From Escherichia coli (GTDB lineage Bacteria; Pseudomonadota; Gammaproteobacteria; Enterobacterales; Enterobacteriaceae), in the NCBI RefSeq assembly GCF_003018255.1, contig NZ_CP027440.1: a stretch of DNA of 64,000 nt, one strand, 5' to 3'. Shown one piece after another: positions 49,001 to 57,860 of the stretch. Both the position numbers and the translations under genes were made by a program. The first letter of the stretch is position 1, and each line of letters opens with the position of its first letter. The notes beneath the pieces were generated by a model. The model was not told the DNA's origin, did not search any database, and worked only from the letters and a program-made list of their open reading frames with translations.

Positions 49001-49201
49001 ATGCGTCTGCGTCCTATCCTGATGACCTCTCTCGCCTTTATTCTCGGCGTATTACCGCTAGCTATCAGTAACGGTGCCGGCAGTGGCGCGCAGAACGCAG
49101 TGGGTATCGGGGTAATGGGCGGGATGGTTTCTGCAACGTTGCTGGCAATCTTCTTCGTGCCGGTGTTCTTTGTGGTGATCCGCCGTTGCTTTAAAGGATA
49201 A
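46097..49201 (+). CDS. acrF: RND efflux transporter AcrF
   Basis: 1034-aa ORF matches E. coli AcrF. Confidence 0.95.
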
Positions 49202-49212
49202 ATCAGAAACAT

Positions 49213-49234
49213 AAAGGCACTTTCGGGTGCCTTT
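49213..49234 (+). terminator. Intrinsic terminator after acrF
   Basis: AAAGGCACtttcgGGTGCCTTT hairpin followed by a T-rich run. Confidence 0.6.
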
Positions 49235-49453
49235 ATTATTTCCAGTGAAACCCATAAAAATTAATAAGATATTCCTCTACTCACTCTTTAAAAACTTTCT
49301 ATAGTTCCCGCTCCCTTCACTATTTTTACAATTCACATAATTTGTCATTATTCATTCCGCAAGATTTATAACCTCCAGTGATAAAATGGCATTCAGCTCG
49401 TTAATAAGAGAGTTAACTTATTAAGCGTTAGCGTTTATTACTGAGGTAACACC

Positions 49454-49675
49454 ATGAAAAGATTAATTCCTGTGGCATTGCTCACCGCATTGCTGGCGGG
49501 CTGTGCTCACGATTCGCCCTGCGTTCCGGTTTATGACGATCAGGGTCGTCTGGTTCACACCAATACCTGTATGAAAGGCACGACTCAGGATAACTGGGAA
49601 ACGGCTGGGGCTATTGCTGGCGGGGCAGCGGCTGTTGCTGGCCTGACGATGGGGATCATCGCGCTGTCGAAATAA
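49454..49675 (+). CDS. yhdV: Small lipoprotein YhdV
   Basis: 73-aa ORF with lipobox LLAGC and Gly/Ala-rich C-terminus. Confidence 0.8.
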   Translation: MKRLIPVALLTALLAGCAHDSPCVPVYDDQGRLVHTNTCMKGTTQDNWETAGAIAGGAAAVAGLTMGIIALSK

Positions 49676-50105
49676 CTGCACAGGGCGCGGAGTACCGCGC
49701 TCTGTTTAACGATACAGTATCTCTCCATAAGATAAAATATTGCTATATTCTTCTGGGTAATTCCCTCCTGATTTAGCATGTTATATCGCGTTATTTCGCT
49801 GCTTTCGAAATAACGCATCGATTTAATTTTCACACTTCCCACCAGAATTATACTCACGCTAACAATCATTATTCTGCTTAGTAAAAAACGCGTAAATATT
49901 TTGCGCCAAAATGTGGCGCATGTTTCATTTTCGCACCATTGCGGGGCGCTGTTTTTATTATTTCCTGTCTACACTCAGCTTATTGCGACGCGAAATCGTG
50001 CGCAAAAGCTGGCACTACTTTTGCTTATAAGAGGATGGCCACAGACAGGTAAAAGACGTTTCCCAAACGTCCTATAACGATAATTTTCGCCTCACAGGAA
50101 GCATT

Positions 50106-51131
50106 ATGAAAAAGATGATGATAGCCACACTGGCTGCCGCCAGCGTGCTGCTTGCCGTTGCAAATCAGGCGCATGCTGGCGCGACGCTTGATGCCGTTCA
50201 GAAAAAAGGGGTTGTGCAATGCGGGATCAGTGATGGATTACCTGGGTTCTCTTATGCCGATGCTGACGGTAAGTTTTCAGGTATTGATGTAGATGTTTGT
50301 CGTGGTGTTGCGGCAGCTGTATTTGGTGACGACACGAAAGTGAAATATACCCCGCTCACTGCAAAAGAACGCTTCACCGCTTTACAGTCAGGGGAGGTGG
50401 ATTTGCTCTCCCGTAATACGACCTGGACTTCATCTCGCGATGCCGGGATGGGAATGGCATTTACCGGCGTCACTTATTACGACGGCATTGGCTTCCTGAC
50501 GCACGATAAAGCGGGACTAAAAAGCGCGAAAGAACTGGATGGCGCTACCGTCTGTATTCAGGCGGGTACTGATACCGAACTCAACGTTGCCGATTACTTT
50601 AAGGCAAACAATATGAAGTACACACCAGTGACTTTCGATCGCTCTGACGAATCAGCGAAGGCACTGGAATCTGGTCGCTGCGATACGCTGGCCTCGGATC
50701 AATCACAACTGTATGCCCTGCGCATCAAATTAAGCAACCCGGCTGAATGGATTGTCTTACCGGAAGTTATCTCTAAAGAACCACTTGGGCCGGTAGTTCG
50801 TCGTGGCGATGATGAATGGTTCTCGATTGTACGCTGGACGCTTTTCGCCATGCTGAATGCTGAAGAGATGGGCATCAATTCCCAGAACGTCGATGAAAAA
50901 GCGGCTAATCCAGCAACACCTGATATGGCACATCTGCTGGGTAAAGAAGGCGATTACGGCAAGGATCTGAAGCTGGATAATAAATGGGCCTTTAACATCA
51001 TCAAACAGGTGGGTAACTACTCGGAAATTTTCGAGCGTAACGTAGGTTCAGAAAGCCCGCTGAAAATTAAACGTGGGCAAAATAATCTCTGGAATAACGG
51101 CGGTATTCAGTACGCGCCGCCCGTGCGTTAA
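50106..51131 (+). CDS. yhdW: Periplasmic substrate-binding protein of a putative polar amino-acid ABC transporter
   Basis: 341-aa ORF with signal peptide; matches E. coli YhdW. Confidence 0.85.
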   Translation: MKKMMIATLAAASVLLAVANQAHAGATLDAVQKKGVVQCGISDGLPGFSYADADGKFSGIDVDVCRGVAAAVFGDDTKVKYTPLTAKERFTALQSGEVDLLSRNTTWTSSRDAGMGMAFTGVTYYDGIGFLTHDKAGLKSAKELDGATVCIQAGTDTELNVADYFKANNMKYTPVTFDRSDESAKALESGRCDTLASDQSQLYALRIKLSNPAEWIVLPEVISKEPLGPVVRRGDDEWFSIVRWTLFAMLNAEEMGINSQNVDEKAANPATPDMAHLLGKEGDYGKDLKLDNKWAFNIIKQVGNYSEIFERNVGSESPLKIKRGQNNLWNNGGIQYAPPVR

Positions 51132-51198
51132 GTCGGTGTGAGGTAACGAGCGTCGCTACGGCGGCGCTCTCTTCAGCGTTATACTTTCCGAGGTTTCT

Positions 51199-52380
51199 AT
51201 GTCTCATCGCCGCTCAACCGTTAAAGGCTCACTCTCCTTTGCCAACCCTACGGTTCGCGCCTGGTTATTCCAGATCTTTGCCGTTGTTGCTGTTGTCGGA
51301 ATTGTTGGTTGGCTATTTCACAACACTGTGACGAATCTCAGTAATCGTGGCATTACTTCAGGTTTTGCCTTTCTGGATCGCGGCGCTGGCTTCGGTATTG
51401 TCCAGCATTTGATCGATTACCAGCAGGGTGATACCTACGGACGCGTTTTCATTGTTGGCTTACTCAATACGCTACTGGTTTCTGCATTGTGTATTGTATT
51501 CGCTTCTGTTCTGGGCTTCTTTATCGGTCTGGCGCGACTTTCGGATAACTGGCTGCTACGAAAGCTTTCCACAATTTATATTGAGATCTTCCGTAATATT
51601 CCGCCGCTGCTGCAAATCTTCTTCTGGTACTTTGCCGTGTTGCGCAATTTGCCCGGACCACGCCAGGCAGTGAGTGCGTTTGATCTGGCCTTTTTGAGCA
51701 ATCGTGGGCTTTATATTCCATCTCCGCAGCTGGGAGACGGATTTATTGCGTTTATCGTGACTGTTGTTATTGCTATAGCCATTTCTGTTGGACTATTCCG
51801 TTTTAATAAAACGTACCAGATAAAGACCGGACAATTGCGCCGAACCTGGCCGGTCGCCGTTATGTTGATCATAGGTTTGCCTTTACTGGCGCAATGGCTT
51901 TTTGGCGCAGCACTACACTGGGATGTTCCAGCCCTACGAGGCTTTAACTTCCGTGGCGGGATGGTTTTAATTCCTGAACTGGCAGCCTTAACGCTGGCGC
52001 TTTCGGTTTATACCTCTGCATTTATCGCCGAGATTATCCGCGCTGGGATCCAGGCAGTGCCTTATGGTCAACATGAAGCGGCACGTTCGCTGGGATTGCC
52101 CAACCCGGTTACGCTACGCCAGGTCATTATTCCCCAGGCACTGCGAGTGATTATTCCGCCGTTAACCAGCCAGTATCTCAACATCGTCAAAAACTCCTCT
52201 CTTGCCGCCGCTATTGGCTATCCCGATATGGTTTCGCTGTTTGCTGGCACCGTGCTGAACCAGACTGGGCAAGCCATCGAGACGATAGCCATGACCATGT
52301 CGGTCTATCTGATTATCAGCCTGACTATCTCGCTGCTGATGAATATCTATAACCGCCGCATCGCGATCGTTGAACGCTAA
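51199..52380 (+). CDS. yhdX: ABC transporter permease
   Basis: 393-aa membrane ORF. Confidence 0.85.
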   Translation: MSHRRSTVKGSLSFANPTVRAWLFQIFAVVAVVGIVGWLFHNTVTNLSNRGITSGFAFLDRGAGFGIVQHLIDYQQGDTYGRVFIVGLLNTLLVSALCIVFASVLGFFIGLARLSDNWLLRKLSTIYIEIFRNIPPLLQIFFWYFAVLRNLPGPRQAVSAFDLAFLSNRGLYIPSPQLGDGFIAFIVTVVIAIAISVGLFRFNKTYQIKTGQLRRTWPVAVMLIIGLPLLAQWLFGAALHWDVPALRGFNFRGGMVLIPELAALTLALSVYTSAFIAEIIRAGIQAVPYGQHEAARSLGLPNPVTLRQVIIPQALRVIIPPLTSQYLNIVKNSSLAAAIGYPDMVSLFAGTVLNQTGQAIETIAMTMSVYLIISLTISLLMNIYNRRIAIVER

Positions 52381-52389
52381 GGAGTCATG

Positions 52390-53493
52390 ATGACAAAAGT
52401 ATTGCTGTCTCATCCCCCGCGCCCGGCGAGCCATAACTCAAGCCGCGCGATGGTGTGGGTGCGAAAAAATCTGTTCTCCAGCTTGAGCAATAGCCTACTG
52501 ACTATTGGCTGCATATGGTTGATGTGGGAACTGATCCCACCGTTGCTGAACTGGGCATTTTTGCAGGCTAACTGGGTTGGCTCAACGCGTGCCGACTGCA
52601 CAAAAGCCGGTGCCTGTTGGGTCTTCATCCACGAACGATTTGGTCAGTTTATGTATGGGCTTTACCCACACGACCAACGCTGGCGAATTAACCTCGCATT
52701 ACTGATTGGGCTTGTGTCGATCGCACCAATGTTCTGGAAAATACTCCCGCATCGCGGTCGCTATATTGCGGTCTGGGCAGTGATTTACCCACTGATTGTC
52801 TGGTGGCTGATGTATGGCGGTTTTTTTGGTCTTGAGCGGGTTGAAACCCGGCAATGGGGTGGGCTGACGCTAACTTTAATTATTGCATCAGTTGGGATTG
52901 CGGGGGCGTTACCGTGGGGGATCTTACTGGCGTTAGGTCGCCGCTCCCATATGCCGATTGTGCGTATCTTATCGGTCATTTTTATCGAGTTCTGGCGCGG
53001 CGTACCGCTGATTACCGTATTGTTTATGTCTTCGGTCATGCTGCCTTTGTTTATGGCAGAAGGCACCAGTATCGACAAACTGATCCGCGCGCTGGTTGGC
53101 GTGATCCTGTTTCAGTCAGCATATGTTGCGGAAGTCGTGCGAGGCGGATTACAGGCGCTGCCTAAAGGGCAATATGAAGCGGCAGAGTCGCTGGCGTTGG
53201 GTTACTGGAAAACCCAGGGGCTGGTTATTCTGCCACAGGCGTTGAAGCTGGTGATTCCTGGGCTGGTAAATACCATCATCGCACTTTTCAAAGATACCAG
53301 CCTGGTGATCATCATCGGGTTGTTCGATCTTTTCAGTAGCGTTCAGCAGGCAACCGTTGATCCCGCCTGGTTGGGTATGTCGACGGAAGGGTATGTTTTC
53401 GCCGCACTGATCTACTGGATCTTCTGTTTCAGCATGTCACGTTATAGCCAACATCTGGAAAAACGTTTTAACACCGGGCGTACACCGCATTGA
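52390..53493 (+). CDS. yhdY: ABC transporter permease
   Basis: Start set to the second ATG (52390), which has GGAG 5 nt upstream. Confidence 0.8.
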
Positions 53494-53500
53494 GGACACT

Positions 53501-54259
53501 ATGAGCCAAATTTTACTGCAACCTGCTAACGCGATGATTACGCTGGAAAACGTCAATAAATGGTATGGGCAATTCCATGTTTTGAAAAATATAAATTTAA
53601 CCGTGCAACCGGGAGAACGGATCGTTCTGTGTGGCCCTTCTGGTTCCGGTAAATCGACAACCATTCGTTGTATTAATCATCTGGAAGAACATCAACAGGG
53701 ACGGATCGTGGTGGATGGCATCGAACTTAATGAAGATATCCGCAATATTGAGCGCGTCAGGCAGGAAGTGGGAATGGTCTTTCAGCATTTCAATCTCTTC
53801 CCTCATCTGACCGTTCTACAGAACTGTACCCTGGCACCGATTTGGGTACGCAAGATGCCTAAGAAAGAGGCTGAAGATCTGGCGTTGCATTACCTTGAGC
53901 GGGTGAGAATTGCCGAACATGCCCAGAAGTTTCCCGGACAGATTTCTGGTGGTCAGCAGCAACGCGTTGCCATTGCGCGTTCGCTGTGTATGAAGCCGAA
54001 AATTATGTTATTTGATGAGCCAACGTCGGCGCTCGATCCTGAGATGGTGAAAGAGGTGCTGGATACGATGATTGGGCTGGCGCAGTCGGGTATGACAATG
54101 CTGTGTGTAACACATGAGATGGGGTTTGCACGAACCGTCGCTGACAGGGTGATTTTTATGGATCGTGGGGAGATAGTGGAACAAGCTGCACCGGATGAGT
54201 TTTTTGCGCATCCTAAATCAGAGCGTACGAGGGCATTTTTATCGCAGGTGATCCATTAA
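53501..54259 (+). CDS. yhdZ: ABC transporter ATP-binding subunit
   Basis: 252-aa ORF with Walker [10 protein letters not shown] and signature LSGGQQQRV. Confidence 0.9.
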
Positions 54260-54275
54260 TTGAATGTTAGTTCGA

Positions 54276-54306
54276 AAAGCAAAAAGGCCATCCTTTCGGA
54301 TGGCCT
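54276..54306 (-). terminator. rrnD operon terminator (also sits just downstream of yhdZ)
   Basis: AGGCCATCCgaaaGGATGGCCT hairpin followed by TTTTTGCTTTT on the minus strand. Confidence 0.55.
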
Positions 54307-54319
54307 TTCGCTTGATTTG

Positions 54320-54439
54320 ATGTCTGGCAGTTCCCTACTCTCGCATGGGGAGACCCCACACTACCATCGGCGCTACGGCGTTTCACTTCTGAGTTCGGCA
54401 TGGGGTCAGGTGGGACCACCGCGCTACTGCCGCCAGACA
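54320..54439 (-). rRNA. rrfF: 5S rRNA, distal copy of rrnD
   Basis: 120-nt reverse-complement match to E. coli 5S rRNA. Confidence 0.9.
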
Positions 54440-57686: not shown

Positions 57687-57860
57687 TCACAACCCGAAGA
57701 TGTTTCACTTCAGAGTTGCGAAAATTTGAGAGACTCACGAACAACTTTCGTTGTTCAGTGTTTCAATTTTCAGCTTGATCCAGATTTTTAAAGAGCAAAA
57801 CTTCGCAGTGAACCTTTGCAGGTACACTCTGAAGTATTTTTTATTTAATCACTACAGAGA

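Follow-up and report, generated by a model that had tools for sequence, protein, structure and literature searches.

The yhdWXYZ Operon of Escherichia coli: A Conserved ABC Importer Beside rrnD With L-Asparagine as Its Probable Ligand

Introduction

In the window analyzed here (the whole stretch of DNA, 64 kb in length, from a non-K-12 Escherichia coli), yhdWXYZ is an ordinary, well-conserved, and already known E. coli amino-acid uptake operon. Judged from its sequence, it belongs among the polar-amino-acid type I ABC importers, in the branch of AapJQMP and BztABCD ("general L-amino-acid"). The reading that we consider probable is that of an NtrC/sigma-54-driven polar-amino-acid importer, with L-asparagine as the most likely high-affinity ligand. 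In what follows, we describe the components of this system and its nearest known relatives, the region that controls its expression, the case for asparagine as opposed to other ligands or functions, and the junction with the ribosomal RNA operon rrnD, which lies directly downstream.

Table 1. Features of the yhdWXYZ operon and of the adjoining end of rrnD (positions are those of the window).
Feature	Position	Strand	Remarks
Upstream block A	49899-49924	+	Imperfect palindrome TGCGCCAAAATGTGGCGCA at 49902-49920, ~125 nt upstream of the predicted start
Upstream block B	49929-49951	+	TTTCGCACCATTGCGGGGCGCTG; ~97 nt upstream of the predicted start; conserved across genera
Block C	49963-49978	+	TCCTGTCTACACTCAG; between the putative enhancer sites and the promoter
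Predicted sigma-54 (-24/-12) promoter	50010-50025	+	TGGCAC-N5-TTGCT, TGGCACTACTTTTGCT; predicted transcription start ~50036
Predicted 5' UTR	50036-50105	+	~70 nt; conserved GCCACAGACAGGT, hairpin, invariant ATAACGATAA, and Shine-Dalgarno
yhdW	50106-51131	+	Periplasmic substrate-binding protein, 341 aa; Pfam SBP_bac_3 at 2.6e-16
Intercistronic stem-loop	51148-51169	+	GAGCGTCGC-TACG-GCGGCGCTC; 16 nt past the yhdW stop; without a U-tract
yhdX	51199-52380	+	Permease 1, 393 aa, AapQ-like; Pfam BPD_transp_1
yhdY	52387-53493	+	Permease 2, 368 aa, AapM-like; Pfam BPD_transp_1; RefSeq start at 52390
yhdZ	53501-54259	+	ABC ATPase, 252 aa; ABC_tran at 1.4e-39
rrnD terminator hairpin	54277-54313	-	Homologue of K-12 rrnD T2; core 54283-54308, 11-12 bp, loop TTTC
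rrfF	54320-54439	-	Distal 5S rRNA of rrnD; Rfam 5S_rRNA match 54322-54437; ends read from the sequence

Gene Content and Protein Family

The operon comprises four co-directional genes on the + strand (50106-54259), whose products are a binding protein, two permeases, and an ATPase (Table 1), with Pfam E-values ranging from 1e-16 to 1e-39 across the four proteins. A first-pass annotation of this DNA had described them as a complete polar-amino-acid-type ABC importer, a description borne out by Pfam, TIGR01726, and PDB matches to all component types. Of 5426 complete E. coli genomes, 5414 carry the operon, and the gene order is retained across the Enterobacteriaceae, with W-X-Y-Z kept in 79 of 81 loci. 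Downstream of yhdZ, the - strand carries genes for 5S, tRNA-Thr(GGT), 5S, 23S, tRNA-Ala, tRNA-Ile, and 16S, an order that identifies the layout of rrnD; the two operons thus lie tail-to-tail (convergent), and adjacency to an rrn operon is conserved across the family in the related loci. Open reading frames on the - strand within the operon (52162-52434, 52785-53078, and others) were taken as spurious, since nothing speaks for them independently and the genes that they overlap are well supported, and an Rfam search of 49200-54330 at relaxed thresholds returned only chance-level matches (E of at least 0.1).

The signal peptide of YhdW, read from the translation, is MKKMMIATLAAASVLLAVANQAHA, ending in AHA. 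This protein matched 34 amino-acid-binding proteins in the PDB, the best of which is 4z9n, a BztA-type binding protein from Brucella ovis (5e-121, residues 22-341), with the next PDB entry reaching only 7e-21; among the best 80 loci, identity to YhdW is 90-99% across 80 species. The gene is intact in the window, while the K-12 copy is frameshifted by a 1-nt deletion at nt 68. Both permeases combine the HEQRo 3-TM domain (TIGR01726; 63.7 bits for YhdX and 69.6 bits for YhdY, against a cut-off of 42.2) with the BPD_transp_1 fold, and each has an EAA loop (HEAARSLGL...VIIPQA in YhdX and YEAAESLAL...VILPQA in YhdY). Their homology to permeases of 220 aa is limited to the C-terminal core: by comparison with these, YhdX has an N-terminal extension and an internal insertion, and YhdY has 157 additional N-terminal residues. 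The Art(QN)2 permease 4yms_D, which is the sole PDB relative of YhdX, accordingly covers only the core of that protein, and its alignment with YhdY is restricted to residues 158-364. The motifs of YhdZ, likewise read from the translation, are Walker A, Walker B, the signature ISGGQ, and the H-loop VTHEM, and the protein matches 4u00_A at 2e-102 and the Art(QN)2 ATPase 4yms_J at 4e-91.

Among described systems, AapJQMP of Rhizobium leguminosarum and BztABCD of Rhodobacter capsulatus resemble yhdWXYZ in the length of the binding protein (~340 aa) and of the ATPase (~250 aa), in the enlargement of the permeases, in gene order (J-Q-M-P), and in being expressed under nitrogen control. YhdX (393 aa) and YhdY (368 aa) compare in size with AapQ and AapM, which are ~370-400 aa long. 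Close homologues are named "general L-amino acid transport system" or AapJ in their source annotations, and none of the NCBIfam equivalog models reaches its own cut-off with the yhdWXYZ proteins. Importers of the Art(QN)2/HisQMP2/GlnPQ type (PDB 4yms and others) share the permease core, the EAA loop, and the ATPase, but offer no solved counterpart to the N-terminal extensions of YhdX and YhdY (~80-160 residues) or to the insertion in YhdX; moreover, YhdX and YhdY form a heterodimeric membrane component, as opposed to the homodimer of the Art(QN)2-type comparison. The system of Citrobacter rodentium has the same operon, gene order, and rrnD adjacency together with an intact binding-protein gene (Borde et al., bioRxiv 10.64898/2026.05.04.722672); the binding measurements were made with the YhdW of C. 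rodentium, and the window locus is the E. coli orthologue.

Promoter and Upstream Region

The predicted sigma-54 promoter, which lies 81 nt upstream of yhdW, is the one exact match to this element in the 64-kb window, where 0.15 would be expected by chance, and in 79 of the best 80 related loci TGGCAY-N5-TTGCT occurs 91-115 nt ahead of the yhdW ATG. Farther upstream, blocks A and B (at about -125 and -97) are strongly conserved and match the NtrC consensus only in part. Block A, which hardly varies among 25 aligned Enterobacteriaceae loci, is a candidate site for an enhancer-binding protein (NtrC or ZraR); a scan had flagged 49902-49920 as terminator-like, but the position and conservation of this segment would better fit an upstream activator site. 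Block B reads as NtrC-like when set against the NtrC consensus TGCACCA-N3-TGGTGCA, in that its GCACCA half is a good match and its second half a partial one. Within block C, CCTGTCTACACTC is almost invariant, again across 25 Enterobacteriaceae loci, and ACTCAGCTTATTG (49973-49985) fits WATCARNNNNTTR with one mismatch; this block may serve as a bending region for IHF.

Published work bears directly on this promoter. An NtrC ChIP-seq peak was assigned to yhdWXYZ in K-12 and was accompanied by nitrogen-starvation expression (PMC4066584, 2014), and a gSELEX peak for RpoN was located between yhdV and yhdX (PMC8743547, 2021). With both NtrC and RpoN thereby placed at the operon, yhdWXYZ is expressed under nitrogen limitation, in keeping with its description in the literature as an NtrC-regulated amino-acid transporter. 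The operon is also regulated by ZraSR, and lux fusions show its expression (bioRxiv 10.64898/2026.05.04.722672). The first-pass annotation had listed a lack of expression among the findings that would count against its reading; the ChIP-seq and nitrogen-starvation data, the gSELEX peak, and the lux fusions all contradict this.

Leader and Intercistronic Stem-Loop

Within the predicted 5' UTR, a small hairpin (GACGTTT-CCC-AAACGTC, 50055-50071) is followed by the invariant ATAACGATAA (50074-50083) and by the Shine-Dalgarno sequence AGGA (50096-50099). When 67 distinct orthologous UTRs were folded separately, most of them contained the hairpin, with stem sequences that differ from one another; RNAalifold, applied to a MAFFT alignment of the 5' UTRs, returned no consensus hairpin, because indels misalign the two arms. 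Regulation of the CA-rich leader by the small RNA GcvB was also considered and set aside, as duplex energies with the 5' UTR were no better than those of shuffles in what is a crude test: the R1 region of K-12 GcvB gave -14.6 with the predicted 5' UTR against a shuffle mean of -19.5, and the whole sRNA performed no better than 71% of shuffles. A literature search for a link between GcvB and yhdWXYZ found none.

The stem-loop between yhdW and yhdX was found in essentially all related loci. In a 28-locus alignment, 99.6% of the cells are paired and compensatory double changes occur in six of the nine pairs; none of 500 shuffles reached these values, and slid registers were only 34-49% paired. 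The element is probably a protector of the mRNA 3' end or a partial terminator, in either case keeping the binding protein above the membrane complex.

Substrate and Function

The first-pass annotation regarded the importer as having no assigned substrate. This agrees with the RefSeq and NCBIfam names, but not with a preprint of May 2026 in which YhdW of C. rodentium was found by ITC to bind L-asparagine with a Kd of 0.37 uM (bioRxiv 10.64898/2026.05.04.722672). In the same study, asparagine was the top thermal-shift ligand among the 20 amino acids that made up the screen, valine did not bind, and cysteine gave weak, non-specific binding; C. rodentium yhdWXYZ mutants also colonized mice less well. 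On 1 mM asparagine, an asnA asnB yhdWXYZ triple mutant of C. rodentium grew equally to the asnA asnB double mutant, indicating that yhdWXYZ is not the main asparagine importer in vitro (bioRxiv 10.64898/2026.05.04.722672). By orthology with the C. rodentium protein, asparagine is most likely the ligand of E. coli YhdW as well, and we infer that yhdWXYZ actually carries out import. Our literature search found no transport assay for any enterobacterial YhdWXYZ, and C. rodentium YhdW was neither among the best 80 loci (all at least 90% identical) nor among the members listed of three clusters.

Asparagine might be merely the tightest in-vitro binder of a broad-range general L-amino-acid permease resembling R. 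leguminosarum AapJQMP and working in uptake, perhaps also in efflux. The subfamily, gene order, and enlarged permeases shared with AapJQMP, as well as the names given to homologues, would be consistent with such a permease, and the absent asparagine growth phenotype suits a redundant generalist; the preprint itself cites Aap as broad in specificity and bidirectional, and Bzt as taking Glu, Gln, Asp, and Asn (bioRxiv 10.64898/2026.05.04.722672). In contrast to AapJQMP and BztABCD, however, the enterobacterial YhdW has been reported to have a narrow range (asparagine) and not a broad one: amino acids other than asparagine gave little or no signal with C. rodentium YhdW in thermal shift or ITC, and the 90-99% conservation of YhdW across the Enterobacteriaceae argues for a conserved, specific pocket, so that a generalist role appears rather unlikely, if still worth bearing in mind. 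The physiological ligand could alternatively be glutathione or another gamma-glutamyl compound instead of a free amino acid, given that the closest solved structure, 4z9n, was co-crystallized with glutathione and not with an amino acid, that a Bordetella homologue has been discussed in that light (PMC6191719), and that the preprint screen was limited to the 20 amino acids. We regard this as very doubtful, since the submicromolar Kd for asparagine is typical of a cognate ligand and the glutathione in 4z9n may derive from crystallization or purification conditions. A dedicated glutathione importer, GsiABCD, moreover already exists in E. coli.

For K-12, the main role has been proposed to be drug efflux or "antibiotic homeostasis." Deletion of yhdWXYZ in K-12 raises sensitivity to lomefloxacin and mecillinam and leads to ~2x the accumulation of lomefloxacin, both promoters respond to lomefloxacin, and antibiotic phenotypes have appeared in knock-out screens too. 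This phenotype, however, was confined to a background in which yhdW is a pseudogene, unlike the intact gene of the window, and a C. rodentium mutant in a background with an intact binding protein had no antibiotic phenotype. Type I importer folds are not known to act as drug exporters, and a primary role in efflux seems to us scarcely credible.

For the preferred reading, that of an importer with asparagine as its likeliest ligand, the following course of events is proposed. Periplasmic YhdW would capture a polar amino acid, most likely L-asparagine, and the loaded protein would dock onto the YhdX-YhdY heterodimer, with import powered by ATP hydrolysis at a YhdZ dimer. Under nitrogen limitation, NtrC would activate the sigma-54 promoter from the conserved upstream sites, as ZraR would according to the literature; a promoter activated by NtrC and ZraR suggests a system for nitrogen scavenging and for uptake in a host niche. 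The stem-loop after yhdW would hold the binding protein above the level of the membrane complex, and the single hairpin shared tail-to-tail with rrnD would end the rRNA transcript.

The Distal End of rrnD

The first-pass annotation had placed the last gene 17 bp from the rrnD terminator hairpin, and 54260-54276 indeed amounts to 17 nt between the yhdZ stop and the hairpin with its extension (23 nt to the core stem). The minimum-free-energy fold of 54277-54313 has a dG of -24.9 kcal/mol (z -5.9, with 0 of 200 shuffles as good) and is followed on the - strand by UUUUUGCUUUU (U5GCU4), giving a GC-rich hairpin and a U-tract on the rRNA strand. On the + strand, the tail of the hairpin, CGCUUGAUUU, is a short, interrupted U run, and the element did not classify as a bidirectional terminator; the hairpin may also end yhdWXYZ transcripts, which is doubtful because the + strand U-tract is poor.

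The mature 3' end of rrfF, at 54320, lies 60 nt past the yhdZ stop, and the T2-type hairpin comes directly after rrfF, with neither T1 nor rrF in between; a comparison of the K-12 rrF segment with the whole window gave no significant match anywhere. In the T1-rrF-T2 arrangement of K-12 rrnD (Stenum et al., 2021, PMC8144298), the second terminator is identical to the hairpin beside yhdZ, and a further 168 nt stand before rrfF is reached. T1 and the sRNA gene rrF make up most of this 168-nt segment, which is flanked by a direct repeat and absent from the window. The long form (the first rrnD terminator plus rrF) is missing from ~40% of E. coli genomes, the window strain included, and its loss leaves one hairpin only between rrfF and yhdZ.

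Read-through of the heavily transcribed rrnD past this single hairpin could yield antisense RNA, as the first-pass annotation suggested; lying over yhdZ, it would damp the transporter in fast growth. Such an effect would be favored by the convergent layout, with merely 60 nt separating the two ends, by the lack of K-12's first terminator in the window strain, by the read-through of T1 documented in K-12, where it yields RrF (PMC8144298), and by the retention of rrn adjacency across the family. Yet the hairpin, with the dG and the U5GCU4 tract given above, is a canonical strong intrinsic terminator, the E. coli genomes that lack the long form apparently manage with one terminator, the sequence carries no sign of selection for such a mechanism, and a literature search for a published yhdZ antisense RNA found nothing relevant. 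We consider antisense damping of this kind improbable, and it is very unlikely that, in strains with the short form of rrnD, residual antisense read-through into yhdZ couples transporter expression inversely to growth rate. If it did, this coupling would complement NtrC activation in slow, nitrogen-limited growth, and the long T1-rrF-T2 form would shield the strains that carry it.

Implications

The regulation of yhdWXYZ has been known for years, from NtrC ChIP-seq in 2014 and RpoN gSELEX in 2021, and a report of 2026 supplied its likely ligand; the operon belongs to the core E. coli gene set and has little significance beyond housekeeping. The covarying hairpin between yhdW and yhdX and the conserved leader offer handles for studying how the levels of the binding protein and the membrane components are set. 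E. coli strains differ at the distal end of rrnD in whether they carry rrF, a published sRNA gene, and this difference is relevant to the question of how far that copy of the sRNA can be essential. Finally, the broken binding-protein gene of K-12 makes that strain a poor model for the transporter, while the window strain, like the intact copies across the Enterobacteriaceae, has a working yhdW.

Operon architecture and protein family

The first-pass annotation described yhdWXYZ as a complete four-gene importer of the polar-amino-acid type, a description borne out by the open reading frames and their Pfam and TIGR01726 matches. The operon is genuine and complete and was recognised correctly; it is also an ordinary one, already known and characterised in outline. 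Judged by sequence, it is in every respect a polar-amino-acid importer of type I and belongs to the Aap/Bzt subfamily. The binding protein YhdW matches PDB 4z9n, a BztA-type binding protein from Brucella ovis, at 5e-121 (the next structure reaches only 7e-21), and close homologues are named AapJ or [quoted passage not shown] in the data sources. YhdZ carries the Walker A, signature, Walker B and H-loop motifs and matches polar-amino-acid ATPases in the PDB at 1e-91 to 1e-102. Both permeases exceed the curated cut-off for TIGR01726 (the polar-amino-acid permease domain), and their sole structure match, the Art(QN)2 permease 4yms_D, covers only their C-terminal cores; relative to this structure, YhdY has 157 additional N-terminal residues, and YhdX has both an N-terminal extension and an internal insertion. 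Permeases enlarged in this way typify the Aap/Bzt branch. No NCBIfam equivalog model scored at or above its cut-off on the operon proteins, hence their generic RefSeq name.

Features of the yhdWXYZ locus and its flanks in the window
Feature	Coordinates	Strand	Remarks
Hairpin	49211-49236	-	Just past the acrF stop; strand as scored by the scan
yhdV	49455-49676	+	Small lipoprotein gene (MKRLIPVALLTALLAGC...) between acrF and yhdW
yhdW regulatory region	49899-50105	+	Highly conserved as a whole
Block A	49899-49924	+	Conserved in 25-locus alignment
Block B	49929-49951	+	Conserved in 25-locus alignment
Block C	49963-49978	+	Conserved in 25-locus alignment; invariant CCTGTCTACACTC at 49964-49976
Sigma-54 element	50010-50025		TGGCAC-N5-TTGCW; 81 nt upstream of the yhdW ATG
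Leader hairpin	50055-50071		
Invariant leader segment	50074-50083		ATAACGATAA; leader conserved in 25-locus alignment
yhdW ORF	50106-51131	+	SBP_bac_3 match
Intercistronic stem-loop	51148-51169	+	9 bp, GC-rich, 16 nt past the yhdW stop, before yhdX
yhdX ORF	51199-52380	+	BPD_transp_1 match
yhdY ORF	52387-53493	+	BPD_transp_1 match
yhdZ ORF	53501-54259	+	ABC_tran match
rrnD terminator hairpin	54283-54308 (core); 54277-54313 (MFE fold)		Between yhdZ and rrfF; GC-rich, dG -24.9 kcal/mol, z -5.9
StyR-44 (Rfam)	57694-57793	-	106.9 bits; directly upstream of the 23S gene in rrnD; taken to be an rrn-associated element

Promoter, leader and expression

The sigma-54 motif upstream of yhdW is its single exact match in the 64 kb, and 79 of the 80 related enterobacterial loci carry such an element 91-115 nt upstream of the gene. 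Of the conserved segments preceding this promoter, blocks A and B are placed as NtrC-type enhancers usually are and, fitting the consensus in part, are candidate enhancer-like sites. Together, the element and the upstream blocks are consistent with published data: an NtrC ChIP-seq peak has been assigned to yhdWXYZ alongside expression evidence under nitrogen starvation (PMC4066584), an RpoN gSELEX peak lies between yhdV and yhdX (PMC8743547), and the operon is described in the literature as NtrC-regulated. ZraSR is reported to control the operon as well, and lux fusions to two promoter regions were active (10.64898/2026.05.04.722672). These reports indicate that the operon is expressed, under nitrogen limitation, and so contradict the absence of expression that the first-pass annotation had named as grounds for refuting its account.

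Within the leader, the small hairpin varies in stem sequence and appears to retain its pairing in most related loci. A separate idea, that GcvB pairs with the CA-rich yhdW leader, was unsupported by a pairing test.

The yhdW-yhdX stem-loop

The stem-loop between yhdW and yhdX occurs in essentially all related loci with differing stem sequences. In an alignment of 28 enterobacterial loci, 99.6% of cells are paired and compensatory double changes occur at six of the nine pairs; these values were not attained in any of 500 shuffles, and slid registers paired only 34-49%. The element matched no Rfam family, and an Rfam search over 49200-54330 found nothing further. Judging from other ABC operons, the stem-loop probably shields the yhdW message or partially terminates transcription, leaving the binding protein in excess.

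The convergent rrnD terminator

Directly 3' of yhdZ, the opposite strand carries 5S, tRNA-Thr, 5S, 23S, tRNA-Ala, tRNA-Ile and 16S genes, a series that gives the rrnD layout. The gap of 17 claimed between the end of yhdZ and the rrnD hairpin is exact, measured in nucleotides from the stop codon to the extended stem. With UUUUUGCUUUU after it on the rRNA strand, the hairpin is a canonical intrinsic terminator; its tail in the yhdZ direction is poor in U. The K-12 reference locus (L001) differs in having 168 additional nt between the T2-type hairpin and rrfF, the distal 5S gene (L001 5915-6083 versus window 54260-54320). This segment contains a second, stronger hairpin (dG -32), is flanked by the direct repeat TTTGATGTCTGGCAGTT, and consists mostly of the terminator T1 and the sRNA gene rrF (distinct from rrfF). 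In K-12, whose published layout is T1-rrF-T2, read-through of T1 produces the sRNA RrF, which ends at T2 (PMC8144298); rrF belongs to the TLR family of sRNA genes, reported to bind Hfq and CsrA. The window instead shows the short form: T1 and rrF are missing, the T2-type hairpin comes directly after rrfF, and a search for the rrF segment across the window gave no significant match. The long form is present in 3239 of 5425 complete E. coli genomes and absent from the remainder, and both forms occur in other genera, Citrobacter included.

Given the strength of rrn promoters and the single terminator, read-through into yhdZ is conceivable. Neither the sequence nor the literature searched yielded evidence of read-through into yhdZ or of yhdZ antisense RNA, and the proposal that such read-through generates antisense RNA over yhdZ is speculation.

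Substrate

The statement that the importer has no assigned substrate no longer holds for the binding protein of an orthologue, for which binding rather than transport is shown. When purified Citrobacter rodentium YhdW was tried against the 20 amino acids, in work posted as a preprint in May 2026 (10.64898/2026.05.04.722672), the largest thermal shift came with asparagine, which bound with an ITC Kd of 0.37 uM. A C. rodentium asnA asnB yhdWXYZ triple mutant grew on asparagine like the double mutant, indicating that yhdWXYZ is not the primary asparagine importer in vitro; loss of yhdW or of the whole operon reduced mouse colonisation early in infection (10.64898/2026.05.04.722672). In K-12, which lacks the binding protein, operon deletion increased sensitivity to lomefloxacin and mecillinam (10.64898/2026.05.04.722672). 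YhdW is 90-99% identical across the related loci (80 loci, C. rodentium not among them), and this conservation makes asparagine a plausible ligand of E. coli YhdW, with the caveat that the 4z9n crystals contained glutathione (PMC6191719), a compound outside the preprint's ligand screen.

Distribution and the K-12 copy

In a scan limited to one genome per species, the 80 best loci came from Escherichia, Citrobacter, Enterobacter, Kosakonia, Lelliottia, Cedecea and other genera. Contig ends interrupt two of the 81 loci; the remaining 79 all show the order W-X-Y-Z. Almost all draft contigs with the operon break off at the rrn repeat, 4.2-5 kb past the start of yhdW, which is an assembly side effect, and in about half of them a 5S 3' end lies 4202-4491 nt downstream; the convergent rrn neighbour is thus old and conserved across Enterobacteriaceae rather than strain-specific. 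One contig, CACSKA010000008.1 (L073), is labelled Chryseobacterium sp. 18061 and holds an enterobacterial yhdWXYZ locus whose yhdW leader is the same as in Citrobacter sp. 18056 (L072) from the same study; the L073 assembly is probably contaminated or mislabelled.

Of 5426 complete E. coli genomes, all but one (5425) have a match to the operon segment, with at least 80% of the segment covered in 5414. Only 76 reach at least 99% identity and K-12 derivatives are 97.5% identical, which places the window in a non-K-12 E. coli lineage. Its yhdW is intact, whereas the K-12 copy (L001 1707-2731) is a pseudogene, differing in alignment by a 1-base deletion at nt 68 (window 50173) and 19 substitutions. 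Because of this frameshift, K-12 is an atypical reference for the yhdWXYZ transporter.
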